NCBI GenBank assembly: GCA_965242505.1
Contig: OZ251449.1
Coordinates: 3,598,630-3,662,629, forward strand
Length of the DNA: 64,000 nt
Direction of reading: 5' to 3'
Origin: Alphaproteobacteria bacterium
GTDB taxonomy: Bacteria > Pseudomonadota > Alphaproteobacteria > UBA2966
The notes beneath the pieces were generated by a model. That model was not told the DNA's origin. It did not search any database and was given only the letters and a program-made list of their open reading frames with translations. Below, piece by piece: positions 11,280 to 43,556 of the stretch. Both the position numbers and the translations under genes were made by a program. Position 1 is the stretch's first letter, and each line of letters opens with the position of its first letter.

Positions 11280-11296
11280 TGGCCCGGTTCGCTTCG

Positions 11297-18984: not shown

Positions 18985-19560
18985 CCGATCCACCCCCCTC
19001 CCTTCCCCCTCTTCTCCCTCTCCCTTGCAGGGGGAGGGTCGGGGTGGGGGTCGCGCCGGGGGAGGAGCGGCGACGGGGCCGGCGGCCGTGGTCCACCCCC
19101 CTCCCGACCTCCCCCCTGTTAGGGGGGAGGAGTGTAGGTGGTCAGGGGGGAGGAGTACGGATGGTCAGGGGGAGGAGCGTCGACGGCTCCCTCCCGTCCC
19201 CTTTCTTCTCCCTCTCCCTTGCAGGGGGAGGGTCGGGGTGGGGGTCGCGCCGGGGGAGGAGCGTCGACGGGGCCGGCGGCCGCGGTCCACCCCCCTCCCG
19301 ACCTCCCCCCTGTTAGGGGGGAGGAGTGTAGGTGGTCAGGGGGGGAGGAGTACGGATGGTCAGGGGGAGGAGCGTCGACGGCTCCCTCCCGACCCCTTTC
19401 TTCTCCCTCTCCCTTGCAGGGGGAGGGTCGGGGTGGGGGTCGCCGGCGGCGGCCGTGGTCCACCCCCCTCCCGACCTCCCCCCTGTTATGGGGGAGGAGT
19501 ACGGATGGTCAGGGGGAGGGTCGGGGTGGGGGTCCGTGTTCCCGTTCGGTATGATCGCTG
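18985..19560. repeat. array of about three tandem copies of a composite about 190-bp unit built from REP-like hairpin modules
   Basis: Repeated unit contains CTTCTCCCTCTCCCTTGCAGGGGGAGGGTCGGGGTGGGGGTCGCGCC ... CCACCCCCCTCCCGACCTCCCCCCTGTTAGGGGGGAGGAGT; no unique spacers. Confidence 0.8.
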
Positions 19561-19608
19561 AATAGCGCCTTGCCGGGAACAAACAGGGAAACTATATTCG
19601 GGACCGTC

Positions 19609-22419
19609 ATGACCCCGGACGAGTTCATCGCCAAGTGGCGCGCGTCGGAACTGAAGGAGCGCTCGGCCGCGCAGGAGCACTTCATCGACCTGTGCCGGCT
19701 GCTGGACGAGCCGACGCCGGCCGAGGCCGACCCCGCGGGCGAGACCTACTGCTTCGAGCGCGGGGCGCGCAAGGACGCCGGCGGCGACGGCTGGGCCGAC
19801 GTGTGGAAGCGCCACTGCTTCGCCTGGGAGTACAAGGGCCGGCGCGCCGACCTCGACGCCGCCTTCAACCAGCTGCGGCAGTACGCGCTGGCGCTGGAGA
19901 ACCCGCCGCTGCTGATCGTCTCGGACATGGCGCGGTTCCGCATCCGCACCAACTGGACCAACAGCGTGAGCGAAACGCGCGAGTTCGCGCTGGAGGACCT
20001 CGCCGACGCGGCGGTTCGCGAGAAGCTCAAGTGGGCGATGTCGGACCCGGAGCGGCTGCGTCCGGGGGAGAGCCGGCAGGCGCTGACGGAGCGGGCGGCG
20101 TCGGCGTTCGCGGCCCTGGCGCAGTCGTTGCGGGGACGCGGCCACGAGGCGCGCGCGGTGGCGCATTTCGTGAACCGGCTGGTGTTCTGCATGTTCGCGG
20201 AGGACGTGGGGCTGCTGCCCGACAGGATGTTCACGCGGATGCTCGAACACGCGCGGCGGCGGCCCGAAGGCTTCGCGGAGTTGGCGAGCCGCCTGTTCGG
20301 GGCGATGTCCGAAGGCGGCGACGTGGGGTTCGAGACGGTTTCGTGGTTCAACGGCGGCCTGTTCGACGACGACGCGGCGCTGCCGCTGGAGAAGGAGGAG
20401 ATCGAGACGGCGCTCGCGGCGGCGGCGCTGGACTGGTCGGAGATCGACCCGTCGATCCTGGGGACGCTGTTCGAACGCGGGCTGGACCCGGACAAGCGCT
20501 CGCAACTGGGGGCGCACTACACCGACCGCGACAAGATCATGCGGATCGTGGAGCCGGTGATCGTCCGCCCCTGGCTCGCCGAATGGGAGGCGGCGAAGGC
20601 GGAGATCGGGGCGGCGCTGGAGCGGGCGCGGACGCCGCGGCAGGCGGAGCGGAAGCTGCAAGACTTCCTGGGGCGGCTCCGCGCCTTCACGGTGCTGGAC
20701 CCGGCGTGCGGGTCGGGGAACTTCCTCTATCTGGCGCTGCACGCGCTGAAGGACCTGGAGCACCGGGTGCAGCTGGAGGCGGAGGCGCTGGGGCTGCAAC
20801 GGTCGTTCCCCGAGATCGGGCCGGCGAACGTCAAGGGGATCGAGGTCAACGCCTACGCGGCGGAACTGGCGCGGGTGTCGGTGTGGATCGGCGAGATCCA
20901 GTGGATGCGGCGCAACGGGTTCCTCGAGTCGCGCGATCCGATCCTGAAGCCGCTCGACACCATCGAACGCCGCGACGCGATCCTGACGCCGGAGGGCGGG
21001 GAGCCGGACTGGCCGGAGGCCGACGTCGTCATCGGCAACCCGCCGTTCCTGGGTAGTTCACGCATACAGTCGGCGCTGGGGGATGCCTATAAGGAAAATT
21101 TGCATAAGGTCTACAAGAGCCGTGTTCCCGGCGCGGCGGACCTCGTGTGTTACTGGTTCCACAAGGCCGGTGGTTTGGTGGCGCGAGGCGCGATCGCCCG
21201 CGCCGGTCTGGTGGCGACAAACTCGATCCGGGGCGGGCGTAACCGCACCGTGCTCGACCGGATCGTTGAACAGGGCGCCATTTTCGACGCTTGGTCGGAT
21301 GAGCCGTGGGTGGTGGATGGCGCAGCGGTGCGGGTGTCGCTGGTGTGCTTTGCCGGCCGCAGCGAGGCTTCCGAGTATCGTTTGAACGGAATGCTTGCCC
21401 CGGGTATTTCCGCGGACTTGGTGGCTTCTTCATCGCGGGCCTTGGGACGTTCGGCGCGTCGGTTGCGGGCAAACCGAGGGGCCTGCTTCCGGTCAGGGGA
21501 AAAAGGGGGAGCGTTCGATATTTCCGGTCAATTGGCGCGTGAGTGGCTTTGCCTGCCCGCGAACCCGAATGGCAGACCCAATTCCGACGTTCTCCGGCCG
21601 TGGATCAACGGTCTGGACGTAACCCGTCGTCCACTCGATCAATGGATCATCGACTTCGGTTACGAAATGAGCGAAGCCGATGCGGCGCTCTATGAGAAGC
21701 CTTTTGCTCATATCGCAACGCATGTGAAGCCTGCGCGATCACGGAATCGGGTGGGGGCGCTCAAGATGTCCTGGTGGCGGCATCGCCGCTTCGTGGCGGA
21801 GCTCCGTGAGGCTCTGAACGGGTTGACGCGCTACATCGCCACTCCCCGCGTCGCCAAGCATCGGTTGTTCGTCTGGTGCGACGCCCGGATTTCTCCCGAC
21901 TCCGCCTTGACGGTGGTGGCCCGCGACGACGACACGACCTTCGGCATCCTCCACAGCCGCTTTCACGAGGCATGGTCGCTGCGGTTGGGCACTTGGTTGG
22001 GGAAAGGCAACGACCCGCGCTACACCCCCACCACCACTTTCGAGACCTTTCCCTTCCCGGAAGGACTCTCGCCCGATGTTCCCGCCGCCGACTATGCGAA
22101 CGACCCCCGCGCCGCCGCCATCGCCGAGGCCGCCCGTCGTCTGGTGGACTTACGCGACCGCTGGCTGAATCCGCCCGAATGGGTGGAGTGGGTGGACGAA
22201 CCGGTTCCGGGCTACCCCAGGCGCCCCGTCCCCCGCGATGAAGCGGCTGCGAAGGAACTCAGGAAGCGCACCTTGACCAACCTCTACAACGCCCGCCCCC
22301 AATGGCTGGCGGACGCCCACGCCGCCCTCGACGCCGCCGTGGCGGCGGCCTATGGTTGGGATGCGGAAATCGCCGAGGAAGAAGCGCTGCGGGAGCTGCT
22401 GGCGTTGAACTTGAGATAG
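19609..22419 (+). CDS. MmeI-family type IIL restriction-modification enzyme (N-terminal PD-ExK nuclease plus gamma-class N6-adenine methyltransferase plus TRD)
   Basis: N-terminus FIAKWRASELKERSAAQEHFIDLCRLL and (D)...EYK nuclease block match the MmeI architecture; NPPF motif IV; ORF 19570 starts at TTG, and ATG 19609 (MTPDEFIAKW) is the preferred start. Confidence 0.7.
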   Translation: MTPDEFIAKWRASELKERSAAQEHFIDLCRLLDEPTPAEADPAGETYCFERGARKDAGGDGWADVWKRHCFAWEYKGRRADLDAAFNQLRQYALALENPPLLIVSDMARFRIRTNWTNSVSETREFALEDLADAAVREKLKWAMSDPERLRPGESRQALTERAASAFAALAQSLRGRGHEARAVAHFVNRLVFCMFAEDVGLLPDRMFTRMLEHARRRPEGFAELASRLFGAMSEGGDVGFETVSWFNGGLFDDDAALPLEKEEIETALAAAALDWSEIDPSILGTLFERGLDPDKRSQLGAHYTDRDKIMRIVEPVIVRPWLAEWEAAKAEIGAALERARTPRQAERKLQDFLGRLRAFTVLDPACGSGNFLYLALHALKDLEHRVQLEAEALGLQRSFPEIGPANVKGIEVNAYAAELARVSVWIGEIQWMRRNGFLESRDPILKPLDTIERRDAILTPEGGEPDWPEADVVIGNPPFLGSSRIQSALGDAYKENLHKVYKSRVPGAADLVCYWFHKAGGLVARGAIARAGLVATNSIRGGRNRTVLDRIVEQGAIFDAWSDEPWVVDGAAVRVSLVCFAGRSEASEYRLNGMLAPGISADLVASSSRALGRSARRLRANRGACFRSGEKGGAFDISGQLAREWLCLPANPNGRPNSDVLRPWINGLDVTRRPLDQWIIDFGYEMSEADAALYEKPFAHIATHVKPARSRNRVGALKMSWWRHRRFVAELREALNGLTRYIATPRVAKHRLFVWCDARISPDSALTVVARDDDTTFGILHSRFHEAWSLRLGTWLGKGNDPRYTPTTTFETFPFPEGLSPDVPAADYANDPRAAAIAEAARRLVDLRDRWLNPPEWVEWVDEPVPGYPRRPVPRDEAAAKELRKRTLTNLYNARPQWLADAHAALDAAVAAAYGWDAEIAEEEALRELLALNLR

Positions 22420-22449
22420 TGAGACCGTTTGAGAAAGGAGTCGATAACA

Positions 22450-24120
22450 ATGGACAAAGAAAAGAAACGATTTCTGCAACAAGGTAAACTCGATGATCTG
22501 AGACATGATCGCAAGTTGAATGAAATGCTCACGGTATATGAATCCAATATCGGAAAATGGCATAATCATGGAACCTATAGTGTGCTGATCCCAAATCAAA
22601 TAGCCGATCATATTCTTTCCAGTTCTTCTTGGGATTTTCGTCATGGTCAGGGAACTCCGGGAAGGATGATTCGTAATTACGGTCATAACAAATCTGTCAA
22701 ATACCTCCGATACGGTAACGACGATGGTATGGAGCCATTGGTTATTGTTCGACATTTTTCGGGAATCAAAGACGATCATGTGGAGTTAAGTGAAGAATTC
22801 CGTTTGTTGCATAATCTGTATCATGATCGGAAAAAAGATCGATTCATCAAGATCGTTGATGGTGGAGAAGAGCAAGTGGTTGCCTGTGTTAAGCCTGACT
22901 TGATTGAGGTGCGGCTTAAGGAAATTCGACAATTTCTGTCAATAAAAGAAATGTATCTTTCTATGCAATTCGATTATATCGAATACTCCGACTTGTCGCT
23001 CTCTGAAATGAATTTACCTGCAAAAGAAGATGAAGAAAAGAGAGAAGGGGATATGCATTGGTTTTGGAACTGTGGCGAAGATCCTACCAGTACAGATTAC
23101 AAGTCGTTTAGCCGCTTGCTCGGAAAGCGTCTTTATGGTCCTCTGCCCAAATCGAAAAGTGGATTCGATGAGAGTAAGAAAGAATATGAGGAGTTTGTAA
23201 TAGGTATCGATGAAGATGGGAACGAAGTGAAGTTTACGTCGGATCCGGATATGTTGGCCGATTATTTCGGTGCGAACCCAGATGCGCCGAATTATCTTAC
23301 ATCTGTATATTTTAACAAAGAAGTTCTTGATAAATACTATCATCATTCGAGCAGATATACTGTTGAAGATTCTTTGCTTCGATGTGGATCCTTTTGGGTT
23401 CTTTGTATGGACAATCATCATGAAGACAAAGTTTGCGTATGGCTGGGAGACTTAGGGAGGGCCCTTCCGTACAAAGAACAGCTGCACTGGCGGGCGCATA
23501 ATATCATTCCACAAGGTAACATAAGCGAAACCTTTTACCGCAATCAAATTTTGGCAGAACCTATGAATTCAACGAATCCAGAACATGTCTTTCGGAGACA
23601 CTTTCATGATCTCCATGGTTTATGCCAGACTCGACTTGGATGGCCTATCTTCCTTCAGCTGGAACCTGAAGATCGACATCACTTGACGACGATGAGAGTT
23701 CCATCATCCAACGAACAAAGGGAATTCGATGAACTGATCCTCGGACTCACAAAGATACTTATAGATTCTTTGAATGTAAAAGGACTGAGAGGGATTGCGC
23801 CAAACAGAGGAAGGAACAAAAATCCCGGCAGCATCGACACGCTGCAAGAAGCACTGGATGCCATTGGTGTAACAGATTATGATGAACATGTGTCATTTTT
23901 GCGGGATCTTCAAAACCTGAGATCGTCGGGATCGGCGCATAGAAAGGGAAAGAGGTATAGCATGATTTCTGAAAAATTTGGTATGACCGAACACCATCGT
24001 CAGGATGTTTTCAAGACGATACTTGGAAAATCCTGTGATTTTTTGAGTTATTTGATCTGTCTTGTCGAAAGTGGCCGTATCGGCAACAACGATAGCTCCG
24101 GGTCCGCGTCTAGCGCTTGA
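22450..24120 (+). CDS. hypothetical protein, 556 aa, strongly AT-rich ORFan directly downstream of MmeI-like gene
   Basis: ATG 22450 with a consensus AAAGGAG RBS 9 nt upstream; about 38% GC against about 70% in flanks; no recognisable domain. Confidence 0.6.
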   Translation: MDKEKKRFLQQGKLDDLRHDRKLNEMLTVYESNIGKWHNHGTYSVLIPNQIADHILSSSSWDFRHGQGTPGRMIRNYGHNKSVKYLRYGNDDGMEPLVIVRHFSGIKDDHVELSEEFRLLHNLYHDRKKDRFIKIVDGGEEQVVACVKPDLIEVRLKEIRQFLSIKEMYLSMQFDYIEYSDLSLSEMNLPAKEDEEKREGDMHWFWNCGEDPTSTDYKSFSRLLGKRLYGPLPKSKSGFDESKKEYEEFVIGIDEDGNEVKFTSDPDMLADYFGANPDAPNYLTSVYFNKEVLDKYYHHSSRYTVEDSLLRCGSFWVLCMDNHHEDKVCVWLGDLGRALPYKEQLHWRAHNIIPQGNISETFYRNQILAEPMNSTNPEHVFRRHFHDLHGLCQTRLGWPIFLQLEPEDRHHLTTMRVPSSNEQREFDELILGLTKILIDSLNVKGLRGIAPNRGRNKNPGSIDTLQEALDAIGVTDYDEHVSFLRDLQNLRSSGSAHRKGKRYSMISEKFGMTEHHRQDVFKTILGKSCDFLSYLICLVESGRIGNNDSSGSASSA

Positions 24121-25779: not shown

Positions 25780-25895
25780 AATCGATATGAGAAATATATG
25801 TTGCATTATTCGCCCGTTTGTGTCATATATCCATCCGATCACGGATAAGGAACGCCGCGGTCGCGGGCGGCGGCCCGGCCATCACGGGCGTTCGG
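25780..25895 (+). promoter_or_regulatory. AT-rich promoter-like region upstream of terminase-like gene
   Basis: Local AT-rich stretch with TTGCAT and TGTGTCATATAT elements in an otherwise 70% GC context. Confidence 0.35.
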
Positions 25896-27422
25896 ATGAC
25901 GGGACAGGACCTCCTCGCCGTGTTGCCGAAGGAAGCGGCGTCGCGAGACTGGCGGCTCGGCAACCTCTACTCGATCGTCGACGCGCGCGGGGAGCGGGTC
26001 CGCTTCGCGCCCAACGACGTCCAGGCCGGGCTGCTGCGGGAGCTGCACACCTGCAACGTCATCCTCAAGGCGCGGCAGCTCGGGTTCACCACGTTGATCC
26101 AGCTGTTCATGCTGGACATGTGCCTGTTCGGCGACAACGTGCGCGCCGGCACGATCGCGCACACGCTGGGGGACGCCGAGCGGATCTTCCGGGACAAGAT
26201 CAGGTTCCCCTACGACTGCCTGCCGCCCGAGGTGAAGGAGCGCGCGCCCGCGGTCCAGAACTCCGCGCGGACGCTGACCCTCGCCAACAACTCGTCGCTC
26301 CGGGTGGGGACCAGCCTGCGTTCGGGCACGTTCCAGGTCCTCCACGTATCGGAGTTCGGGCGCATCGCGGCGCGGCGGCCGGACCAGGCGCGCGAGATCA
26401 GGACCGGCGCCCTCAACACCGTGCAGGCCGGCCAGCGCGTCTTCATCGAGTCGACGGCCGAGGGCCGCGGCGGCGCGTTCCACGACCTCTGCAAGCAGGC
26501 CGAGGCGCTGGCCGAGACCGGACGGCCCCTGTCGCCGCTCGACTTCAAGTTCCACTTCCATCCCTGGCACAGCGACCCGAAGCACCGCCTCGACCCCGAG
26601 GGAATCGCGCTGAGCGACGAGGACCGCGCCTATTTCGCCAGGATCGAGGCCGAGACCGGCGCCGTCCTCGACGCGGGCCAGCGCGCCTGGTACGCGCGCA
26701 AGGCGGCCGTCCAGGGCGAGGACATGCTCCGGGAGTATCCGTCGACGCCCGGCGAGGCCTTCGCCGGCGCCGTCGAGGGCGCCTATTTCGGGAAGGAGCT
26801 GTCGCGGGCGCGGCGCGAGGCCCGCGTCCGCCATGTGCCCGTCGAGCCCGCGCTTCCCGTCAACACCTTCTGGGACCTCGGCGTCGACGACGAGACGGCG
26901 ATCTGGTTCCACCAGCAGGCGGGCCCCGAGCACCGGTTCGTCGACTACTACGAGAACTCCGGCGAAGGGCTGGACCACTACGTCCGGGTGCTCCGCGACA
27001 AGGCGGCCGCGCGGGGCTTCGTCTACGGCGCCCACTTCCTGCCCCACGACGTGCAGGTCACCTCGTTGTCGACGGGCAGGACGCGACTCGACACCCTGAA
27101 GGGGCTCGGCGTGGCGCCGGCGCGCGTCGTGCCCAGGACCGGCAACGTGGCCGAGGACATCCAGGCCGCGCGCAACGCCGTCGCCGCGTGCTGGTTCGAC
27201 GAGACCCGCTGCGCCAGGGGCCTGAAGGCGCTGGAGAGTTATCGCAAGGAGTGGGACGACAGGCTGGGGACGTTCAGGAACCGTCCCCGGCACGACTGGG
27301 CGAGTCACGGGGCGGACGCCTTCCGCTGCTTCGCGGTGGGATACCGCGCGACCGAGGGAGGCGGGAGCCGCCGCCGCGCCGCCGCCGCCGCGACGGAGAC
27401 GATGGACAGCCCGTGGGGCTGA
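25896..27422 (+). CDS. phage terminase large-subunit-like protein (lone)
   Basis: 508 aa from ATG 25896; terminase-like N-terminal ATPase region (VILKARQLGFTTL) and C-terminal nuclease-like block (HDWASHGADAFR); no other phage structural genes nearby. Confidence 0.45.
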   Translation: MTGQDLLAVLPKEAASRDWRLGNLYSIVDARGERVRFAPNDVQAGLLRELHTCNVILKARQLGFTTLIQLFMLDMCLFGDNVRAGTIAHTLGDAERIFRDKIRFPYDCLPPEVKERAPAVQNSARTLTLANNSSLRVGTSLRSGTFQVLHVSEFGRIAARRPDQAREIRTGALNTVQAGQRVFIESTAEGRGGAFHDLCKQAEALAETGRPLSPLDFKFHFHPWHSDPKHRLDPEGIALSDEDRAYFARIEAETGAVLDAGQRAWYARKAAVQGEDMLREYPSTPGEAFAGAVEGAYFGKELSRARREARVRHVPVEPALPVNTFWDLGVDDETAIWFHQQAGPEHRFVDYYENSGEGLDHYVRVLRDKAAARGFVYGAHFLPHDVQVTSLSTGRTRLDTLKGLGVAPARVVPRTGNVAEDIQAARNAVAACWFDETRCARGLKALESYRKEWDDRLGTFRNRPRHDWASHGADAFRCFAVGYRATEGGGSRRRAAAAATETMDSPWG

Positions 27423-28301: not shown

Positions 28302-28907
28302 TTGGCGCGGACGTTTCGCGGGAGGCGGCTGGCGATCGCGAGCCACAACGCGGGCAAGGCGCGCGAGATCGCCGATCTGCTCCGCCCCTTCGGCGTGGAC
28401 GCCGCGCACGCGGCCGCCCTCGGCCTGGACGAGCCGGAAGAGGACGGCGACTCCTTCGCCGAGAACGCCCGCATCAAGGCCGCCGCGGCGGCGGCCGCGG
28501 CGGGGATGCCGGCGCTCGCCGACGATTCCGGGCTGGTCGTCCGCGCGTTGAACGGCGAACCCGGGATCCGTTCGGCGCGGTGGGCGGGACCCGACAGGGA
28601 CTTCTCCCGGGCGATGGCCGAGGTGGAGCGCCGGCTGGCGCGGACGGGCGGGGACGACCGCGCGGCGCGTTTCGTGTCGGCGCTCTGCCTCGCCTGGCCG
28701 GACGGCCACGCCGAGACGTTCGTCGGGCGCGTCGACGGCCGCCTCGTCTGGCCGCCGCGCGGGGACAAGGGGTTCGGCTACGACCCCATGTTCGCGGCCG
28801 ACGGACGCCGGACGACGTTCGGCGAGATGGACCCCGCCGACAAACACGCCATCAGCCACCGCGCCGACGCCTTCCGCAAGCTCGTCGATGCCTGCTTCGG
28901 CCGCTGA
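28302..28907 (+). CDS. rdgB: RdgB/HAM1-family non-canonical purine NTP pyrophosphatase
   Basis: [13 protein letters not shown]-terminal motif and KGFGYDPMF motif; non-ATG start, exact start uncertain. Confidence 0.8.
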
Positions 28908-30135
28908 GCCGGGCGCCGGGCGCCGGAGGGGGCCGCCGGCGGCGGCGGACCCCGGGTTCGCGGTCTACGTCCACTGGCCGTTCTGCGCCTCCAAGTGCCC
29001 GTACTGCGACTTCAACAGCCACGTCCGCGACGCGATCGACCAGGAGAGATGGGGCCGGGCCCTGATCGCCGATCTCGAAAGCGCCCTGGACGCCGCTCCG
29101 GCGGAGGTCGTCCGGCCCGCGGCGAGCGTGTTCTTCGGCGGCGGCACGCCGTCCCTGATGGCGCCGGAGACGGTGGACGGCGCGCTCGGCGCGCTCGCGC
29201 GGCGGGGCCTCGTGGACGGAGACGCCGAAGTGACGCTGGAGGCCAACCCCTCCTCGGCGGAGGCCGGGCGGTTCGCCGACTACCGCGCCGCCGGGGTCAA
29301 CCGGCTGTCCGTCGGGGTTCAGTCCCTCGACGACGGGGCGCTCCGCGCTCTCGGGCGCGCGCACGGCGCGGCGGAAGCCGTGGACGCCGTCGCGGCGGCC
29401 CGCGAGGCGTTCGATCGCGTGTCCTTCGACCTGATCTACGCCAGGGCGGGGCAGACGCCCCGTTCCTGGCGCGGCGAACTGGAGCGGGCCCTGGCGCTGC
29501 GCCCGACGCACGTCTCGCTCTACCAGTTGACGATCGAGCGGGGCACGCGGTTCCACGAGGCGTATGCGCGGGGGGAACTCGCGCCGCCGGGCGAGGACGA
29601 CGCGGCGGCGATGTACGAGGAGACGACGGCCCGCTGCCGGGCCGCGGGCCTCGACGCCTACGAGGTCTCGAACTTCGCGGCGCCGGGCGAGGAGTGCCGG
29701 CACAACCTGGTCTACTGGCGGTCGGGCGACTGGCTCGGGGTCGGACCCGGCGCCCATGGCCGCGCGGGACGGGGGGAGGGCCGGACCGCGACCCGCCGCT
29801 GGCGCAGTCCCGAGAAATGGCTGGGGGCCGTCGAGGGGGCGGGTTCGGGACTCGAGGCTTGGGAAACGCTGGACGCGCCCGCGCGCGCCGCCGAGGCGCT
29901 GATGATGGGGCTGCGCCTGACGGAAGGCGTGTCCGCCGAGCGTTTCGAGCGGACGGTCGGGCGGACCCTGGAGGAGTGCGTCGACGCCGGGCGCCTGCGG
30001 CGGCTCGTCCGCGGCGGCTTCCTCGAAACCTCGCGGACCGGCGCGCGGACGACGCCCCGGGGGCGCATGGTGCTGAACGCCGTGCTCGGCGAGCTCCTTC
30101 CGGAGGGCGGGTCCGGTCGCTCCGGACCGCCGTGA
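28888..30135 (+). CDS. hemW: radical-SAM heme chaperone HemW / coproporphyrinogen-III-oxidase-like
   Basis: CxxxCxxC ([10 protein letters not shown]) followed by HemN-like blocks; conserved rph-rdgB-hemW order; start may lie slightly downstream. Confidence 0.8.
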
Positions 30136-30141
30136 CGTCGA

Positions 30142-30429
30142 TCAGTCGAAGGGCTTGTGGAGGCGGTGGCCGGATAGCGCCCCCAGGATCAACGGCGCCG
30201 ACGCGCCGATGTTGACCGCCAGAATCGGGTTCAGATCGACGCCTTCGGAGGCCCGGTGCGCGAGCACCAGCAGGCCGCCCATGAGGACCATGAATACGGT
30301 AACCCCCCAGTACGGCCAGCTCTTCGCGTAGTCGGGGATGCCTTTGTGGAGTTCCTCGCGGACGCGGAACCACTTGAGGGCCTCCGAGGCGATGCCGCCC
30401 ATGAGACCCCAGAAGAATTCCGTTCCCAT
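30142..30429 (-). CDS. small membrane protein (two predicted TM helices), hypothetical
   Basis: 95-aa ORF with hydrophobic segments; lower GC than the flanks. Confidence 0.4.
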   Translation of the reverse strand: MGTEFFWGLMGGIASEALKWFRVREELHKGIPDYAKSWPYWGVTVFMVLMGGLLVLAHRASEGVDLNPILAVNIGASAPLILGALSGHRLHKPFD

Positions 30430-30451
30430 GCGAGTCCCGTCCCGCGGGTGT

Positions 30452-30778
30452 TCAGAACGACTTGCTGGCGTAGACCTGAAGGTCGTCGATGATGTCCCGC
30501 ATCTTCATCGGGCGGGACTTCAACGTGTAGATGATCCGCCGATCCCGGGACATGCGCTGGCGTATCTCGGAGCGATGCTGGTCGAGAAGGCGTTTCACGC
30601 GTTCCGGTTCCAATCCGGTGTCTCTCACGATGCCCTCGACGGTCCTGAAGTCCCACTTCGGATCCTCGAGCGCCGAATGCACCCTGGACCATTCGTTCAT
30701 GTCCGCCACCTTTCCGCAACTCGAGCCGGCGCCCGGCAACCACCGTATCATGGTGTCCCGGTCCGGGGATTGCAACAT
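30452..30778 (-). CDS. hypothetical protein
   Basis: 108-aa ORF (possibly starting at the internal MNEWSR); adjacent to the small membrane protein. Confidence 0.35.
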   Translation of the reverse strand: MLQSPDRDTMIRWLPGAGSSCGKVADMNEWSRVHSALEDPKWDFRTVEGIVRDTGLEPERVKRLLDQHRSEIRQRMSRDRRIIYTLKSRPMKMRDIIDDLQVYASKSF

Positions 30779-30873
30779 TTCAGTCGCCGTTCGAAGGGCC
30801 TGGAGGCTCCGCCTCGTCCGGACGAGACACTCGAGCCGTTCCGGCTCGATGCGGGCCCGTCGCGGCGAGCCCG

Positions 30874-30920
30874 CGGCCTACGACGCGCCCGCCGGCGGCG
30901 CGAAGGCCTCCGGCGCCTCG
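30874..30920. repeat. 47-bp direct repeat, copy A (duplicate of lpoA 3' end)
   Basis: CGGCCTACGACGCGCCCGCCGGCGGCGCGAAGGCCTCCGGCGCCTCG, identical to 32673..32719. Confidence 0.85.
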
Positions 30921-30945
30921 CCGTCTCCCCGGGCCTCGGCGGACG

Positions 30946-31614
30946 TCAGCTCCAGACGTCCTCTTTCGCCTCCCAATACGCCTTGACCTCGCCGAACCGG
31001 TCGACCCTGTTCTGTATCTTGACGATCTCCCCTGGATAGAATGCGGCCATTGCCTCGCATAGTTGCAGCATCCACGCCCTCCGGGAGTATCGGTCCACTA
31101 CACGGATACGGTTGGCGTCGGCGATCTGGATTTGACCCCAGCCCAGCGCGCCAATGGTCAGACACGTCCAATCGATGAACTCGATGGGGGAAAACAAGAC
31201 CTCCGACACGTCGATCCGGGTCCCTTCGACGGCGTACCTGATCATGATGAGGGAAAAGACGTTGACGTCGGTTTCGTAAAAACGGGCGAGGCGCTCCACG
31301 GACGTCAGGTTGGGCATGCTGAATTTGGCGTCTTCCCGGTGCGTCTTGACGTCCACGACCGAATAGAAGCCTTCCTTGTCCGTGAACGCCATGTCCGCCA
31401 TGGCGCGGCGCGAGAAGTCGCTCGAGTATTCGCTGCACCAGTCTCCGAGAAAGCCGTCGAATTTCTCCGCCACGAGCGACTCCAGCGCGTCGCCGACCGC
31501 TCTCGGACTACCCGACGTCCGGGGAGAAAGAAAGTCCTGGTGCGCATTGACGTACTCCCTGATGGCCGAGGCCACTCCGTGACAATGCCCTTCGTAGTAG
31601 AAGCCCGACCTCAT
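30946..31614 (-). CDS. type II restriction endonuclease (PD-(D/E)XK)
   Basis: 222 aa from MRSGFYYEG; 14 nt downstream of the methyltransferase gene on the same strand; VVDVK catalytic-like block. Confidence 0.55.
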   Translation of the reverse strand: MRSGFYYEGHCHGVASAIREYVNAHQDFLSPRTSGSPRAVGDALESLVAEKFDGFLGDWCSEYSSDFSRRAMADMAFTDKEGFYSVVDVKTHREDAKFSMPNLTSVERLARFYETDVNVFSLIMIRYAVEGTRIDVSEVLFSPIEFIDWTCLTIGALGWGQIQIADANRIRVVDRYSRRAWMLQLCEAMAAFYPGEIVKIQNRVDRFGEVKAYWEAKEDVWS

Positions 31615-31628
31615 GAGAGAAGATCCGC

Positions 31629-32597
31629 TCAGTCCGAACGGGGACCGGGTTTCGCGCGTTGACCGGCGCGCGTGTTTCTCTCCCAGAATACGCCGTCTGC
31701 ATACCCCTGGATGGACGGATCGCGCCGCGCGGCGGCGATGCGCTTCAGCGCCCAGCACAGGTATTCGGCGTCGGCGTCGATCCCGCACCAGCGCCGCCCC
31801 AGTTTCTGGGCCACGACGGCGGTGGTGCCGCTGCCGAGGAACGGGTCGAAGACCAGATCCCCTTTCCTCGAACTCGCGAGAACGAGCTTCGCGATCAGCT
31901 TTTCCGGCTTCTGGGTGGGATGGTCGGTGTTTTCCGGCATCGACCAGAACGGAACCGTCACGTCGGTCCAGATGTTCGACGGGTGCGTGAGACGGTAGGC
32001 GCCGGCCTCTTCCCGTTCCCAGCCCTTCGGTTGCCCCTCCGTCCTGTAGGGCGCGAGGACCCGACGCTTCAGCTTCACCGCCCCGACGTCGAAGTGATAC
32101 CGGTTCGACATCGTGCAGAACCAGATGTCCTCCATGTTGTTCTTCCAGTTCGCCTGCGCGCCGCGTCCCTTTTCACGTTCCCAGGTGATCCTGTTCCGAA
32201 CATGGAATCTCGATTCCAGTATGGGCGAGATCAGCATGGAGGTTCGCCAGTCCGCGCACGCATACAGCGTGGCTTCCGGCTTCATCGCCGGAACCAGCGC
32301 ATCGACGACTTCGCGGAACCAGGATACGTAAGCGTCGCTCTCCCTTCTTCGGAACGGATTTCCGTTGAAGTTCCTGGACAGGTTGTAGGGAGGGTCGAGG
32401 ATCAGAAGATCGATGAACGCGGACGGCAGATGTCCCGCCACGTCGAATACGTCTCCCACGACGAGCCGGCCTTCGACGTCCCGCTGGGTTACGGGCGCTC
32501 CCACCCGCAGGAGTTCGGGGCGCAGGCGGGCGATTTCCTCGTCCGTGCACGACAGCGTCCGGTTTCCGGGCGCGCGTTTTCGCATGTGAACTGCCAT
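31629..32597 (-). CDS. type II DNA methyltransferase (beta-class N6A/N4C; DPPY motif IV, FDPFLGSGTT motif I)
   Basis: 322-aa ORF with canonical motifs; forms an M-R operon with 30946..31614. Confidence 0.8.
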   Translation of the reverse strand: MAVHMRKRAPGNRTLSCTDEEIARLRPELLRVGAPVTQRDVEGRLVVGDVFDVAGHLPSAFIDLLILDPPYNLSRNFNGNPFRRRESDAYVSWFREVVDALVPAMKPEATLYACADWRTSMLISPILESRFHVRNRITWEREKGRGAQANWKNNMEDIWFCTMSNRYHFDVGAVKLKRRVLAPYRTEGQPKGWEREEAGAYRLTHPSNIWTDVTVPFWSMPENTDHPTQKPEKLIAKLVLASSRKGDLVFDPFLGSGTTAVVAQKLGRRWCGIDADAEYLCWALKRIAAARRDPSIQGYADGVFWERNTRAGQRAKPGPRSD

Positions 32598-32672
32598 ATG
32601 GGGATGGGGTTCGTGGAGCAGGGGGGAGACGGCACGACCATCAGGGCCGCGGGCTCGAATCCCCTCGCCGCC

Positions 32673-32719
32673 CGGCCTACGACGCGCCCGCCGGCGGCGC
32701 GAAGGCCTCCGGCGCCTCG
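32673..32719. repeat. 47-bp direct repeat, copy B (native 3' end of lpoA-like gene)
   Basis: Identical to 30874..30920. Confidence 0.85.
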
Positions 32720-34143
32720 TCGATCACGCGGCGCCCCCGCGGCCCGATCTCGATCACCGCCAGCCCCCGTTCGGCGATGCCGTCGCGCCGGAAACGGAAT
32801 ATGCCGTCCACGCCGGCGAAGCCGCTGGGTTGGGTCAGCGCGGCCGCGGAGAAGTCCGGCTCCGCCGCGCCCCGCATGAGCGCCGCGGCGAGCGCCACCG
32901 CGTCGTAGGCGACGCTGGCTATCCGGGGCGGCGCGTAGCCGTGGCGCTCCTCGAAGCGTTTCGCGAACGCCGCCGCCGCTTCCGGCGGCGGGCCCGCGAA
33001 CCAGCCGCCGACCAGCGCGGGTTCCCGGCCCAGCATGGGTTCGTCCCAAAGACCGGTCCCGAGAAACCTGACCTCGGCGGGGTCGATGTCGTAGAAGGGA
33101 AGGAGAGGCGCGATGGCGCGCAGGCGCGCGCCCCCGTCCGCCAGCATGACGGCCCGGCGCTCCGGGGGAGCGGCCGTGAGGCCCTCGCGCCGCGGGAGCG
33201 CCGGGTCCCGGCGCCAGCCGTGGCCGGCCAGGCGGCGCACCGGTTCGAAATAGTCGTCCGCGTCCGGCGGGTAGCGCTCGATCCGGGAGATCCGACCGCC
33301 GTTCCTCAGGATCGAATCCTCGAACGCGGCGACGACGGCCTCGCCGTAGGACGTTTCCGGGGCGAGCGCGGCGAACCGCCGGATGCCGCGCCGGGCGGCG
33401 AACCCGACCACCCGCTCGACCTGCTGGTCGGGCATGAAACCGAGAAGATAGACCCCGTCCCCCGCCACGAGCGGGTCGGTGGAAAACGCGATGACGTTCA
33501 CGCCGCGTTCTCGCGCCGGCCCGGCGGCGGCGGCGGCGGCGGCGGCGAACACCGGCCCGAGGATCAACCGCGCGCCTTCCCGCAGCGCGGCTTCGGCGGC
33601 GGCGCGGGCGCCGTCGGGAGTCCCGCCCGTGTCCCGGGGAAGGAGGGTGAGCCGGGCATCGCCGATCTCGAACAGGGCGATCAACGCGGCGTCGAGCAGG
33701 GCCTGCCCGAGCGCCCGCTCTCCGCCCGAAAGCGGCAGCAGAAGCGCGATGCGGACGGGTCCCTCGGCGTCGGGGGGCGGCGTCGGCGCGACGGCCGGGG
33801 GGTCCTCCGCCGGCGTTTCCGCGACGACCGGCGGGACCGGCGAAACCGGCGGAACGGGCTCCGGCCCTCCCCGCGGACGGTTCCCGGCGTCGTCGTCCGT
33901 CGCGGGCGCCGGCTTCGTCCCGGTTTCCAGGACCGGCCGGCTCTGTCCGGGGTCTGGCCGATCGGGCGCTTGGGCGGGTAGTTTGGGCGGCGCGCACGCC
34001 GAAACCGCGAGGGCCGCAGCGAACCATGTCACGGCGAAGAACCGGCGGGCGATCCGGCGCCCGGACGTCGAGGATCGGCGCAACCGAGAGTCCCTCCGCG
34101 GTCCCTTTTCCCGACCGCGAACGTACTCCCCGCGCGCCGGCAA
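32677..34143 (-). CDS. lpoA: LpoA-like lipoprotein (penicillin-binding-protein activator; periplasmic-binding-protein type-1 fold)
   Basis: Lipobox AVSAC signal, Pro-rich linker, LIVBP-like domain; divergent from rsmI as at the E. coli lpoA/rsmI locus; start uncertain. Confidence 0.55.
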   Translation of the reverse strand: MPARGEYVRGREKGPRRDSRLRRSSTSGRRIARRFFAVTWFAAALAVSACAPPKLPAQAPDRPDPGQSRPVLETGTKPAPATDDDAGNRPRGGPEPVPPVSPVPPVVAETPAEDPPAVAPTPPPDAEGPVRIALLLPLSGGERALGQALLDAALIALFEIGDARLTLLPRDTGGTPDGARAAAEAALREGARLILGPVFAAAAAAAAGPARERGVNVIAFSTDPLVAGDGVYLLGFMPDQQVERVVGFAARRGIRRFAALAPETSYGEAVVAAFEDSILRNGGRISRIERYPPDADDYFEPVRRLAGHGWRRDPALPRREGLTAAPPERRAVMLADGGARLRAIAPLLPFYDIDPAEVRFLGTGLWDEPMLGREPALVGGWFAGPPPEAAAAFAKRFEERHGYAPPRIASVAYDAVALAAALMRGAAEPDFSAAALTQPSGFAGVDGIFRFRRDGIAERGLAVIEIGPRGRRVIDEAPEAFAPPAGAS

Positions 34144-38254: not shown

Positions 38255-38335
38255 CCCGTCCCCTCTTATTCTCCCTCCCCCTTGCAGGGGGAGGGTCGGG
38301 GTGGGGGTCGCGCCGGGGGGAGGAGCGCGAACGGA
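38255..38335. repeat. REP-like palindromic element
   Basis: Same family modules. Confidence 0.8.
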
Positions 38336-38429
38336 CCCTGCGCGCCGGACCGGACGCAGCCGGAAACCGCCCCTGATCGTTCCATTGACGCCCTGGCGAG
38401 GGCGTACTCGGAACCCGGAGGGAGTCGGC

Positions 38430-39947
38430 ATGGTCGCGCGGGTGGGCACGGTAGCGTTCCAGGGCGTCGAGGTGCTCGACGTCGACGTGCAGGTGCAGGT
38501 CGCGCGCGGGGTGCCGGCCTTTCGCATCGTCGGCCTGCCCGACAAGGCCGTCGCCGAAAGCCGGGAGCGGGTGCGGGCGGCCCTGTCGGCCATGGGGCTG
38601 GCGCTCCCGGCCAGGCGCATCACCGTCAATCTCTCGCCGGCGGACCTGCTGAAGGAGGGCAGCCATTTCGACCTGCCCATCGCCCTCGGCCTGCTCACGG
38701 CCATGGACGTCGTGCCCGCCGACGCCCTCGACTCCTATGCGGCCCTCGGCGAGCTGGCGCTGGACGGCGCGGTCGCTCCCGTGGCCGGCGCCCTGCCGGC
38801 GGCCATCCACGCCGCGGCGGCCGACCGGGGCCTGGTCTGTCCGGCGCCCTGCGGCGGAGAGGCGGCGTGGGCGGGCGACGTCGAGATCGTGGCCGCGCCG
38901 TCGCTGCTCGCGTTCGTCAACCACGTCAAGGGGACGCAGGTCCTGTCCCGGCCCGAACCGGTGGCGGCGAACGACGCCGCGGCGATCCCGGACCTTCGCG
39001 ACATCAAGGGCCAGGAGAGCGCGAAGCGCGTCCTCGAAGTGGCGGCGGCGGGCGGCCACAACCTGTTGATGTGCGGGCCGCCGGGCTCCGGCAAGTCGAT
39101 GCTGGCGGCGCGGTTGCCGGGCCTGTTGCCGGCGATGGACGCCCACGAGATGCTCGAGGTCAGCATCGTCCAGTCGGTCGCCGGGCTGCTCGCGGGCCGC
39201 GGCCTCACCAACCGCCGGCCGTTCCGCGACCCGCACCATTCCACCTCGCCGGCCGCCATGGTCGGGGGCGGGATCCGGGCCCAGCCCGGGGAGATCTCGC
39301 TCGCCCACAACGGCGTGCTCTTCCTCGACGAGCTGCCGGAGTTTCCGCGGCCCGTCCTCGAATCGCTGCGCCAGCCGCTGGAGGTCGGGCGGATCACCGT
39401 GGCGCGCGCGAACGGGCACGTCACCTACCCGGCGCGGTTCCAGCTCGTCGCCGCCATGAACCCCTGCAAGTGCGGCCACTTCGGCGATCCGGCGCAGGGT
39501 TGCTCGCGGGTCCCGGGCTGCGCCCGCGACTACCAGGCGAGGCTGTCGGGCCCGTTCCTGGACCGCATCGACCTGCGGATCGAGGTGCCGGCGGTCGAGG
39601 TCTCCGATCTCGCGCTCCCGCCTCCCGCGGAGGGGACGGGGGAGGTCGCCGCGCGGGTGGCCACGGCCCGCGAGGTCCAGCGAAGCCGCCTCCGGGACGC
39701 CTCGGCGGGCGCGGTGCGGACCAACGCGGCAATGGACGGCGAACTGCTGGAACGCCTCGCCGCGCCCGACGCCGCCGGCGCGCGGCTGCTGGCCGAGGCG
39801 GCGGAGCGCCTGCGCCTCACCGCCCGGGGCTATCACCGGGTGCTGCGCGTCGCCCGCACCCTCGCCGATCTCGACGGCGCCGGCGGGGTCGGCCGGCTCC
39901 ACGTCGCCGAGGCGCTGAGCTACCGGCGGATGGCGGGGGTCTCCTGA
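38430..39947 (+). CDS. comM: YifB/ComM-family Mg-chelatase-like AAA+ ATPase
   Basis: Start MVARVGT; Walker A GPPGSGKS; Lon-like N-domain; C-terminal conserved region. Confidence 0.85.
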   Translation: MVARVGTVAFQGVEVLDVDVQVQVARGVPAFRIVGLPDKAVAESRERVRAALSAMGLALPARRITVNLSPADLLKEGSHFDLPIALGLLTAMDVVPADALDSYAALGELALDGAVAPVAGALPAAIHAAAADRGLVCPAPCGGEAAWAGDVEIVAAPSLLAFVNHVKGTQVLSRPEPVAANDAAAIPDLRDIKGQESAKRVLEVAAAGGHNLLMCGPPGSGKSMLAARLPGLLPAMDAHEMLEVSIVQSVAGLLAGRGLTNRRPFRDPHHSTSPAAMVGGGIRAQPGEISLAHNGVLFLDELPEFPRPVLESLRQPLEVGRITVARANGHVTYPARFQLVAAMNPCKCGHFGDPAQGCSRVPGCARDYQARLSGPFLDRIDLRIEVPAVEVSDLALPPPAEGTGEVAARVATAREVQRSRLRDASAGAVRTNAAMDGELLERLAAPDAAGARLLAEAAERLRLTARGYHRVLRVARTLADLDGAGGVGRLHVAEALSYRRMAGVS

Positions 39948-40005: not shown

Positions 40006-40033
40006 TTGACAGTCTCGGCACTCTCATTTAATG
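40006..40033 (+). promoter_or_regulatory. sigma-70-like promoter for IS1595-family transposase
   Basis: TTGACA (40006..40011), 15-16 nt spacer, TTTAAT/TTAATG; followed by an AAGGGGA RBS. Confidence 0.4.
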
Positions 40034-40059
40034 TCCGATTATTTCAAGGGGATATGGAC

Positions 40060-41040
40060 ATGTCGAAGGAAACCCCCAGAAAAGCCTACCGCGAAGGCAT
40101 CAGCATGGTCGAGCTGTTCCGGCGCTGGCCGGACGACGCGACTGCCGAGGCGTGGTTTGTCGCCCGCCGCTGGCCGGAAGGTGGCCACTGCCCGCATTGT
40201 GGCTCGACCGATGTGCAGTCCGGCGCGAAGCATAAGACCATGCCTTACCGCTGCCGGGCGAAGGAATGCGCAAAGCGGTTTTCCGCGAAGACCGGCACGG
40301 TCATGGAAGGCTCAAAGCTTGGCTTCCAAGTCTGGATGATCGCCACTTATCTGCTTTCGACTAGCCTGAAATCGGTTTCGAGCATGAAGCTGCATCGGGA
40401 TTTGAACATCAACCAGCGCAGCGCATGGTTCCTCGCCCATCGGCTGCGGGTCGCCTTGGCTGATCGGGAAGATGTATTCTCTGGCCCGATAGAGGCGGAT
40501 GAGACCTATGTGGGCGGCCGCCGGACCAACATGCCGAAGGCGAAGCGAAAAGAGCAGACAGGCCGCGGCACAGTCGGCAAGACAGCCGTCGTCAGCGTGA
40601 AGGATCGCGCGACAAGTCGTATTCATGTACAAGTCATCCCTTCCACTGATGGCGAAACCCTGCGATCCTTTATCCGCGACCATGCAGGGGAGGGAACCGT
40701 GGTCTACACGGACGGGCGTGGTGGCTACTGCGGGCTGGCGGCCGACTTCAAGCATGAGTCGGTCAATCATTCGGTCGATGAATATGTTCGCGGCATGGCC
40801 CATATGCAGGGCATCAAGAGCTTTTTGGTGATGCTGGATCGGGCGCATAAGGGACCATTCCACAAGTTCTCGCCGAAGTATTTTGACCGGTATGTGCAAA
40901 AAGTCTCTGAGTGCCACAACGCCCGTGACCGGGATATCATCGACATCATGGCGGCCTTCGCGGAAGGCGCGGTTGAGAAGCGTCTCCGCTACCGGGATTT
41001 GATTGCCGACAACAGCCTGCCTTTGGGGGCGCAGTCATGA
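40060..41040 (+). CDS. IS1595-family transposase (zinc-ribbon plus DDE)
   Basis: CPHCGS ... C..C zinc ribbon and an ISXO2-like DDE domain; ATG 40060 (or 40054). Confidence 0.8.
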   Translation: MSKETPRKAYREGISMVELFRRWPDDATAEAWFVARRWPEGGHCPHCGSTDVQSGAKHKTMPYRCRAKECAKRFSAKTGTVMEGSKLGFQVWMIATYLLSTSLKSVSSMKLHRDLNINQRSAWFLAHRLRVALADREDVFSGPIEADETYVGGRRTNMPKAKRKEQTGRGTVGKTAVVSVKDRATSRIHVQVIPSTDGETLRSFIRDHAGEGTVVYTDGRGGYCGLAADFKHESVNHSVDEYVRGMAHMQGIKSFLVMLDRAHKGPFHKFSPKYFDRYVQKVSECHNARDRDIIDIMAAFAEGAVEKRLRYRDLIADNSLPLGAQS

Positions 41041-42434
41041 TCGTGACGGCGGTATCCCCGCATGGAGGACCTACCGAAGAACGACAAGCATTGTCAGCGC
41101 GTTTCGCACCGCGTCTTGTCACCAGTGAGTTCTACTCCCGCAGGGTCGTCTCCTACCAAGGAAACCGTAAGGTGCCGGGCCTCCGGTGGATGAAATACAA
41201 GGAAGGTTTCTCCAGCCAGCTTGTGGCAGAATTGATTGAACAGGAGAATCCGCGCGCGGTTCTCGATCCTTTCGCTGGAATTTGCACAACGCCGCTTATC
41301 GCCGCTGGACAGGGACGCCGAGCAACAGGAATCGAAATCATGCCTGTTGGCGTGTTGGCCGGATCGGCTATTACAGAAGCGGCAAACGGTCTCTCATCGA
41401 GTGATTTCGATGAACATGCTTCTATCTTCTTGCAGTCTGTCAAAACGAAGAAATCTACCTCTGATTTCGCGTTCCCGCATGTGCGGATAACGGAGGGAGC
41501 CTTTTCCGGTGAAACAGAGAGAGAGATTGCCAAGGCAAGGCAATCTCTCTCGGAGATTGATAATGACGGATTGCGCTCACTCTTGGATTTGGCGTGTATG
41601 TCTGTCTTGGAGGAAGCTAGCTACACGCGCAAGGACGGTCAGTATCTCCGTTGGGACCGCAGGGCCAGAAGGTTGCTACGGTCGTCTGTGGATCTGGGTC
41701 CCATCCCCCGATTCTGTGACGCCTTGGAACGGCGGCTTGTGGAGATAGAGGAAGACATTGATTCACTCAAAAAGCAATTCGGGGGCGGAAAACCTAAGCT
41801 GATCATCGGATCATGCCTTGAATTGCTCAAGAGTATACCGGATGGCGAATTCGACATGGTGATTACATCACCGCCCTACGCCAATCGCTACGACTACACC
41901 CGCACATATGCACTAGAACTAGCATGGATGGGATTCGATCAAGGGGATTTTTCAGTGCTTCGCCAACGTATGCTGTCCTCGACGGTGGAAAACAAAACAA
42001 AGAGGGAAATTCTGGCAGGTGCCTATGGAACGGACTGTAGGGTATTTGATCTGGCCGCGCAAATGTATGATGGACAAGGTGCTGTCCATGAGGTGCTAAG
42101 CATTCTTAGGGAGAGAGAAGATGAGTTAAGTAACAAGAATGTACTGAAGCTCATCGAACAGTACTTTTTCGAGATGGCAATCGTCATATCTGAGCTTGGG
42201 CGCATTGTTCGCCCTGGTGGGGTTGTATTCATGGTCAATGACAATGTACAATACCACGGCGAGGAGCTGCCAGTGGATTTCATATTGTCAGATTTTGCCG
42301 AGAATTCTGGCTTTCATTGTGAGAGTATATGGAAGTTGGCCAGAGGCAAGGGGAATTCTAGCCAACAAATGGCTCGTTTCGGTCGCCGTGAACTGCGTAA
42401 ATGTGTTTATAGGTGGGTCCGATCCTATGACTGA
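41037..42434 (+). CDS. DNA methyltransferase (alpha-class N6-adenine/N4-cytosine; motif I LDPFAGICTT, motif IV SPPY)
   Basis: 465-aa ORF whose ATG overlaps the transposase stop (ATGA); about 50% GC. Confidence 0.7.
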   Translation: MIVTAVSPHGGPTEERQALSARFAPRLVTSEFYSRRVVSYQGNRKVPGLRWMKYKEGFSSQLVAELIEQENPRAVLDPFAGICTTPLIAAGQGRRATGIEIMPVGVLAGSAITEAANGLSSSDFDEHASIFLQSVKTKKSTSDFAFPHVRITEGAFSGETEREIAKARQSLSEIDNDGLRSLLDLACMSVLEEASYTRKDGQYLRWDRRARRLLRSSVDLGPIPRFCDALERRLVEIEEDIDSLKKQFGGGKPKLIIGSCLELLKSIPDGEFDMVITSPPYANRYDYTRTYALELAWMGFDQGDFSVLRQRMLSSTVENKTKREILAGAYGTDCRVFDLAAQMYDGQGAVHEVLSILREREDELSNKNVLKLIEQYFFEMAIVISELGRIVRPGGVVFMVNDNVQYHGEELPVDFILSDFAENSGFHCESIWKLARGKGNSSQQMARFGRRELRKCVYRWVRSYD

Positions 42435-43335: not shown

Positions 43336-43556
43336 CATGGAGGGAGCGATGATCGAGAAACCGAAGCTGCAAGAGGTTGAAGTCGTGCATCCCAACTACC
43401 AGCCGAGTAAGGCTGAATTGGAGGAAGATATGCGGGTCGAGGCGGCCTTCGATGAAGCCGTGGCCGCGCTCTCCCAGCCCGTCAACATCCGCTACATCGA
43501 CCGGCCGCGATGAGCGGCCTTCGGCACTTTCCTACATAACCCCCCCTTCAAAGGAA

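Follow-up and report, generated by a model that had tools for sequence, protein, structure and literature searches.

The 64-kb stretch of an alphaproteobacterial chromosome analysed here, which we call the window, carries what reads as a compact type II restriction-modification (R-M) operon, a methyltransferase gene (M) followed by a putative endonuclease gene (R), at the 3' end of an lpoA-like gene and between two identical 47-bp direct repeats. Relative to strains of the same species, this cassette together with one copy of the repeat (1,799 bp) is an insertion/deletion unit, and the feature as a whole is an instance of an already known class, the R-M insertion with long target duplication. 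As to its origin, we think it likely, on balance, that one illegitimate crossover between alternative alleles of the locus made the stacked structure, with no recombinase taking part. The elements concerned are as follows, in window coordinates:

30874..30920, no strand: copy A of the repeat, a non-coding duplicate of the lpoA end.
30921..30945, no strand: spacer downstream of R, 25 nt common to the cassettes of the related loci L009 and L030, ending in the novel joint to copy A.
30946..31614, minus strand: R gene, 222 amino acids, putative type II restriction endonuclease with a PD-(D/E)XK-like motif.
31629..32597, minus strand: M gene, 322 amino acids, beta-class N6-adenine/N4-cytosine DNA methyltransferase.
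32598..32672, minus strand: region upstream of M, with native-like lpoA flank beside copy B, the rest presumably being the M-R promoter.
32673..32719, no strand: copy B of the repeat, the 40 last coding nucleotides of lpoA, its stop codon and 4 nt past the stop.
32677..34143, minus strand: lpoA-like gene, with a periplasmic-binding-protein fold, of the penicillin-binding-protein activator family; its true 3' end lies inside copy B.

A first-pass annotation of this DNA had placed the M and R genes between two identical 47-bp copies, and both a repeat search and the open reading frames (ORFs) bear this out. The copies agree at 47 of 47 positions, are spaced 1,799 bp apart with 1,752 bp between them, and extend to 50 nt (ending at 30923 and 32722) with a single mismatch (49/50). 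Even with up to three mismatches allowed, the 47-mer occurs in the window only as copies A and B (no match in 100 shuffles), and the longest exact direct repeat arising by chance in 20 first-order Markov simulations of the window measures 16-19 nt. The repeat is real, and it is unique in the window. Copy B had been described as the last 14 codons of lpoA plus the stop; it is indeed the true gene end, with the stop codon at 32677-32679, though its coding part amounts to 13 codons and one nucleotide rather than 14 full codons. Copy A is non-coding, as had been stated: the sole ORF running through it (30878-31438) overlaps R and is out of frame with it. The lpoA gene remains whole despite the duplication. 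The insert holds M and R alone, at a guanine-plus-cytosine (GC) content of 57-68% against 72-80% in the flanks; a domain scan of the ORFs of 27-37 kb found no integrase or transposase domain in or near the cassette, and the repeat search found no inverted repeats pairing its two ends.

Several lines of evidence bear on the two genes. The M product matches PF01555 over residues 62-280 (E=3.1e-39) and the PADLOC model MTase_II (E=1.5e-56), and its translation has the catalytic DPPY motif (LILDPPYNL) before the S-adenosylmethionine-binding FxGxG motif (DPFLGSGTT), the two motifs expected of the methyltransferase of a type II R-M system. It is 89% identical in amino acids to the M of L009, the closest complete genome (OY282368.1), and 68-71% identical to the R-paired M genes of distant genomes. 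R matches nothing in Pfam, NCBIfam, PHROG or the PDB sequences. Its homologues nonetheless number more than 4,300, sharing 65-94% identity with it, and UniRef labels one of them 'restriction endonuclease'. Its motif reads D74 ... D88-V-K90, with D74, D88 and K90 invariant and on adjacent predicted strands; PADLOC REase_II matches it weakly across this stretch (E=4e-4), and a ratio of nonsynonymous to synonymous substitution rates (dN/dS) of 0.11-0.14 indicates purifying selection. R lies directly 3' of a PF01555 gene in L009, L026 and L027-29; this partner has 299-325 amino acids and overlaps R by 4 bp in L009 and two unrelated genomes. Because the AlphaFold2 model of R is mediocre (pLDDT, the predicted local distance difference test score, of 61.6) and Foldseek finds no match to it in the PDB, it is from genomic context and motif, and not from fold, that we infer R to be a putative type II enzyme of the PD-(D/E)XK class. 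The cassette would be expected to act both as a barrier to phage and other foreign DNA and as an addictive selfish module.

The same M-R pair recurs in distant bacteria as nothing more than its two genes and in unrelated surroundings: L026 has it between proB and proA, and L027-29 have it between an SLT/LysM gene and an M6 peptidase gene. We found no homologue of R on PLSDB plasmids or GenBank phages, and just two distant relatives (47-57% identity) on IMG/VR contigs. Nor is an exact match to the R protein of the window on record. Metagenome scans returned no match to the exact joint of the window, and eight loci for a conserved 20-mer of the R 3' end, all of them chance matches lacking M and R.

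The state of the locus in cassette-less relatives can be read from seven metagenome contigs (L015 and L020-L025) from the species-level population of the window, which match it at 95-98% identity on either flank; these supply the empty-site comparison that the first-pass annotation had called for. All seven read lpoA-orf82-orf95-hemW, with a single 47-mer and no R-M genes, and in each the alignments of the left part of the window (to 30942) and of its right part (from 32673) overlap on that 47-mer, which is then followed by the same spacer that lies beyond copy A. The empty-site 47-mer is identical at 46 of 47 positions, with T where both window copies have C. A generic repeat, duplicated in relatives that lack R-M genes, had been named as what would speak against an insertion; the 47-mer instead has two copies in the window and one in each relative. 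Up to both junctions the window remains 96-99% identical to the L015-type strains (lpoA itself is 96-97% identical to L015 and L020 as far as the repeat), on which ground we rejected the import of the flanks by homologous allelic replacement. The empty sites support the earlier reading of an R-M unit bracketed by a duplication of its target, but the polarity may be that of gain in the window or of loss in its relatives, and no free mobile element need be invoked.

The cassette lies in the convergent junction of lpoA and hemW, which is a hotspot for cargo genes. The first-pass annotation had seen it as disrupting an lpoA/rsmI-yraN-dolP synteny. This does not hold, as the cassette sits on the 3' (hemW) side of lpoA, and rsmI-yraN-BON still adjoin lpoA. 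On the hemW side of copy A the junction holds a second cargo:

28888..30135, plus strand: hemW-like radical-SAM gene (Radical_SAM and HemN_C), convergent with lpoA and forming the other border of the cargo hotspot.
30142..30429, minus strand: orf95, 95 amino acids, reading as a small membrane protein, paired with orf108, with no family match.
30452..30700, minus strand: orf108, 82 amino acids from the ATG at 30700, first gene of the alternative cargo, with no family match.
30701..30873, no strand: non-coding spacer, hypervariable and containing small hairpins; its orthologue in the cassette-less relatives is the spacer between lpoA and orf82.

The site is naive in the more distant relatives L002 and L003 (80-85% identity), where hemW and lpoA have no cargo and stand 10-40 bp apart; since orf108/orf95 are likewise absent from between them, the whole of about 30125-32662 is accessory, this gene pair included. 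Two single-cargo alleles can be recognised beside the naive site. Allele O, lpoA-orf108(-orf95)-hemW, is that of L015, L020-25 and L017, and a homologue of orf108 also lies between lpoA and hemW in L011. Allele R is lpoA-cassette-hemW, with R directly beside hemW in L009, L030 and unit 2 of L018. The cargo at the locus is, variously, this M-R pair, a 274-amino-acid restriction endonuclease with a 412-amino-acid methyltransferase, orf108/orf95, or none, and the cassette occupies the locus in four sister lineages.

Comparison with these alleles suggests that the window has one novel joint, on the R side only, the M side apparently continuing into the ancestral lpoA flank. On the R side, the spacer of 25 nt that follows the R stop ends in GGAGACGG, with CGAGG next across the joint, and the window-type joint as a whole reads GGGGAGACGG and then CGAGGCGCC; at this place L030 reads GACGACGAGGG and native lpoA reads ATCGACGAGGC. 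An 8-bp microhomology, CG(G/A)CGAGG, spans 30916-30923 and accounts for the imperfect 3-nt extension of the repeat. Beyond the lpoA stop, on the M side, come 16 nt (GCCGGGCGGCGAGGGGA in lpoA sense, a count that takes in the final 4 nt of copy B) that agree with the native L002 flank at 16 of 17 positions, and allele O diverges 4 nt past the stop. There being a single novel joint, the repeat simply ends, at its distal edge, where the two alleles cease to be homologous. A consensus scan of 32598-32672 for a sigma-70-like promoter upstream of M found none.

The lpoA-hemW spacer exists in this clade as at least two cargo alleles, R and O, and we posit that a single illegitimate crossover at the GC-rich 8-bp CG(A/G)CGAGG would have joined the spacer 25 nt downstream of R, on allele R, to the place in the lpoA of allele O that lies 40 nt before the stop codon, stacking both cargos in one chromosome. 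The lpoA segment from the crossover point to the divergence of the alleles, being carried by both partners, would in this way have become duplicated. The stacking would need no dedicated recombinase, and the resulting direct repeats would permit precise loss of the cassette by RecA-type recombination, or its amplification. We favour this single-crossover reading, as the most parsimonious one, because the R-side joint falls on a microhomology and the M side runs into the ancestral lpoA flank. By analogy only, such an event may be likened to the homology-facilitated illegitimate recombination during natural transformation that de Vries and Wackernagel reportedly described, in that a GC-rich microhomology is found at one joint and lpoA homology on the other side; that process usually replaces recipient DNA, whereas here there is a duplication.

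The sister lineages show that the same kind of event took place independently with other breakpoints. L011 has the order lpoA, M-deleted cassette, 138-bp hemW-end copy, 72-bp lpoA-end copy, orf83 and hemW, and L018 has the same joint of a hemW end to an lpoA end; it links the equivalent of position 29958 in hemW to that of 32742 in lpoA, on the microhomology GGT.CGCCC. Upstream of the joint, L018 carries an unrelated type II R-M pair (1119-3178), comprising the 274-amino-acid endonuclease (PADLOC PDLC03512, E=5e-81) and the 412-amino-acid methyltransferase, and the 91 bp upstream of this pair are 82% identical to the region upstream of the window-type cassette; downstream of the joint lies the M-deleted cassette. 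In both lineages a 900-bp deletion (at 9938 in L011 and 3736 in L018; window equivalent 32577..31677) removes nearly all of M and leaves R intact. The two M-deleted R genes are 98.9% identical, with a dN/dS of ~0.13 against the window; an R gene without its M would be expected to kill the cell if it were expressed and no other methyltransferase shielded the DNA. In L009 a direct repeat of 112 bp, made up of the hemW end and spacer and with copies 96% identical, lies on either side of the M-R pair, and upstream of M lie a 61-bp M fragment and the 112-bp hemW-end repeat (8775-8939). The lpoA of this genome stands 2.6 Mb away from the M-R-hemW block, beside comEC and lexA, which would indicate a chromosomal rearrangement with its breakpoint inside a former tandem R-M array. 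L009 and L018 both have tandem, partly duplicated units, with 112-215-bp repeats, the M fragment and the stacked second R-M system between them. The duplicated segment differs from lineage to lineage: the window has a second lpoA end, L009 a second hemW end, and L011 and L018 have both, while around the unit in L026 and L027 there is none.

Rates of divergence bear on the age of the cassette and on that of the duplication. The R genes of the window and L009 are 92.7% identical in nucleotides, with a synonymous divergence (dS) of 0.26 against a core dS of ~0.10, and those of the window and L011 are 86.8% identical, with a dS of 0.50 against ~0.16. As the distances of R parallel those of the hosts, the cassette has been in this clade and at the locus about as long as the lineages have existed, rather than having lately arrived from elsewhere. 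In copy A there is no private substitution, where ~3 would be expected since the split from the L015-type strains (from non-coding and cassette dS rates). In L009, L011 and L018 the repeat copies differ from each other by 4-7%. An unmutated copy A set against these diverged sister repeats favours a recent stacking, in the lineage of the window, of alleles that are themselves long-standing.

Several points count against the crossover reading. No allele-R chromosome of the lineage of the window, with lpoA, cassette and hemW contiguous, was found; in L009 the rearrangement has broken up the junction between lpoA and the cassette, and L030 is a 1.75-kb fragment. The microhomology is short, some similarity is expected by chance in DNA of 75% GC, and the structure in the window rests on one assembly. 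The nuclease identity of R comes from its context and motif, with a poor structure model that has no match. Moreover, the parallel between R and host distances fits equally well an old stacked array homogenised by gene conversion.

This last idea leads to the best of the alternatives, which we consider unlikely but well worth weighing: the window would have kept an ancestral stacked array of cassette, lpoA-end copy and orf108, the seven relatives and L017 would have lost the cassette by homologous recombination, and gene conversion would keep the two 47-mers identical. The R tree is congruent with the host tree, with proportional distances; the order of cassette and then orf108 is common to the window and L011; and recombination between the repeats would leave precisely the single-copy site observed. 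However, the divergence of the repeats in L009, L011 and L018 means that homogenisation is not general, and the joint in the window, which lacks a hemW-end copy, is unlike that of L011 and L018. All seven nearest relatives are empty, and at the one base where they depart from the C of copies A and B they all have T. Post-segregational killing, moreover, should select against any loss of an active R-M system.

We regard as improbable a de novo insertion, in which a free linear or circular cassette would have entered an orf108/orf95-type chromosome through two illegitimate joints staggered by 47 bp, for example in double-strand break repair. The final structure would be the same as that of the published 46-47-bp duplications overlapping gene 3' ends, and this M-R unit has landed between housekeeping genes of distant genomes. 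Yet those distant insertions are without flanking duplications (none of 12 nt or more was found around the unit in L026 and L027), the supposed M-side joint runs for 16 nt in native-like lpoA flank and looks like ancestral continuity, and the presence of the cassette at one locus in four sister lineages speaks against random insertion.

An integrase acting in trans on the lpoA 3' end as attachment site has very little to commend it beyond two observations: direct repeats restoring a gene 3' end are typical of integrase-mediated islands, and the stretch 32645-32672 (plus strand), beside copy B, resembles the T-arm and acceptor strand of a tRNA, with a GGGTTCGAATCCCGT-like motif that might be the relic of a tRNA-targeting island. 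The motif is degraded in the window and better kept in L009 (8933-8960: ACGGG-TTCGAAT-CCCGT-CGCCGCC) and in unit 1 of L018; the L018 sequence has it at 950-975 and 3633-3660. It is clade-specific, being missing upstream of M in the distant cassettes, and lies next to the repeat, not within it. Neither ARAGORN, run on the window and five loci, nor Rfam at E<=1-10, run on the window region, L009 and L018, found a tRNA; we rejected a tRNA origin of this end because part of the 'acceptor' is native lpoA flank and the motif is absent from the distant cassettes. Against the integrase itself stand the absence of any encoded in or near the cassette, the variation of the duplicated segment among lineages, and the failure to see identical 47-bp attachment sites around unrelated cargo with a linked integrase. 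Equally hard to credit is an assembly artefact in which two co-existing alleles were mis-joined, for although both alleles co-occur in the same metagenome series and the genome of the window lies outside the searched collections, the partners share just ~8 bp at the novel joint, far under any assembler overlap, and stacked arrays of an analogous kind were recovered in separate assemblies from several samples (L011/L012/L013/L014 and L018/L019).

The locus finds several counterparts among known systems. Furuta, Abe and Kobayashi (2010; PMC2853133) define an 'insertion with long target duplication' by R and M in an insert of less than 20 kb, with no other mobile element and a duplication of more than 30 bp that is single-copy in a related genome, and in their Haemophilus examples 46-bp repeats overlap gene 3' ends. 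Here we find homologues of both R and M in a 1,752-bp insert, a 47-bp repeat and single-copy relatives; the repeat is the coding end of lpoA with its stop, neither a tRNA or attachment site nor a multicopy sequence. The locus shares with the inserts of this class (Nobusato et al. 2000; PMC2853133) a short R and M insert, no mobility gene, a duplication of more than 30 bp that is single-copy in a relative, and deviant GC. It differs from them in that the site is a convergent-gene junction already holding another accessory gene pair, and in that sister alleles and independent stacking joints point to unequal crossover rather than to a free element. The same work describes allelic substitution and repeat-mediated amplification of R-M systems and leaves the mechanism open, with hypotheses only (PMC2853133). 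As in amplification and loss through flanking repeats (reference 84 in PMC2853133; a hypothesised 'virus-like life cycle'), direct repeats bracket the unit, and L009 and L018 have tandem units; the window itself, unlike those cases, shows no amplification. As in the allelic substitution of R-M and other defence cargo at fixed loci (Furuta 2010; the E. coli hsd locus), one locus carries different cargos in related strains, but here alleles are also stacked in tandem, split by duplicated ends of the border genes. Islands inserted by integrases into the 3' ends of tRNA or protein genes likewise have direct repeats, of which the duplicate restores the 3' end of the target gene; in contrast to these, we find no tyrosine or serine recombinase (ORFs of 27-37 kb), the flanking duplicate varies in identity and length by lineage, and the joints fall on microhomologies. 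The transposon-like R-M unit of Furuta 2010 has terminal inverted repeats and a short target duplication, and the cassette has no inverted repeats pairing its ends.

Turning to the neighbours of the cassette, the lpoA-like product matches Peripla_BP_6 (E=1.6e-38) and LppC (30.9 bits, cut-off 28.8), and its homologues bear the NCBI name 'penicillin-binding protein activator'. The orf108 product reads as a soluble protein with 32 homologues found. The orf108/orf95 pair recurs in a distant 8-Mb genome at 58-59% identity (orf95 is 58% identical to the gene next after the orf108 homologue of L033), and in some distant contigs (L031-L034) the second gene of the pair is truncated beside a DDE transposase. 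The spacer at 30701-30873 is 58-73% identical to the same-species contigs, differing largely by indels, against 96-99% in the flanking genes; its divergence is strongest at 30780-30880, and several indels occur even among the cassette-less contigs. It contains short perfect hairpins, GAGCCGGAACGGCTC and CTCGTCCGGACGAG, and is possibly the lpoA terminator region.

Elsewhere, the window holds further genes of the R-M type, at least four such loci being present in the 64 kb. First, two tandem paralogues (457 and 398 amino acids) at 9523-12493, in a stretch of 62-67% GC, each encode an N6_N4 DNA methyltransferase that continues at its C-terminal end into an HNH nuclease, and share exact repeats of up to 152 nt. 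Second, an island at 19570-24120, where GC falls to 43%, by far the minimum of the window, has an MmeI-like type IIG R-M gene of 949 amino acids (PADLOC REase_MTase_IIG, 1018 bits), followed by a 563-amino-acid ORF without family match. Third, a foreign block of 50-61% GC at 40006-44435, beside comM (Mg-chelatase-like, 38301-39947), has an IS1595-family transposase, a 465-amino-acid MTase_II, an XcyI-like restriction endonuclease (PF09571) and a 352-amino-acid N6_N4 methyltransferase. A 534-amino-acid ORF at 25818-27422 resembles a phage terminase large subunit (phrog_2, E=7e-26; phrog_2472, E=1e-75) and has no Pfam match; a gene of 510-540 amino acids, likewise without Pfam match, lies at the same position beside rph in all close relatives, which suggests that it is conserved rather than prophage-borne. 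A link of orf108/orf95 to this gene was rejected, as the 534-amino-acid genes of the window and L033 are unrelated. Exact repeat families of 50-64 nt at 19010-19393 and 57267-58190, with G/C-rich palindromic blocks (GACCCCCCTCCCGACCTCCCCCCTGT.AGGGGGGAGG...), look like intergenic elements of the repetitive extragenic palindromic type.

Finally, from the point of view of annotation the locus is ordinary, consisting of an undamaged lpoA, an R-M cassette that varies between strains and a 47-bp relic that encodes nothing, and it is a clean example of a known route by which selfish defence genes enter and leave chromosomes without a mobility gene. What the locus offers to the question of how R-M systems move without such genes is an unusually complete natural series, comprising the naive site, two single-cargo alleles and two independent stacked arrays with mapped microhomology joints, together with a stacked second R-M system, an M-deleted derivative and an associated chromosomal rearrangement, which makes unequal crossover between alleles and repeat-mediated loss testable. 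We tentatively raise the further possibility, itself short of probable, that the long target duplication at many R-M insertions may be the product of unequal microhomology crossover between cargo alleles in a transient merodiploid rather than the footprint of an insertion; the lpoA-hemW junction might then be a recombinase-free stacking site, whose cargos, two type II R-M systems and orf108/orf95, would stand stacked with duplicated gene ends between them and later be shed or amplified through the repeats.

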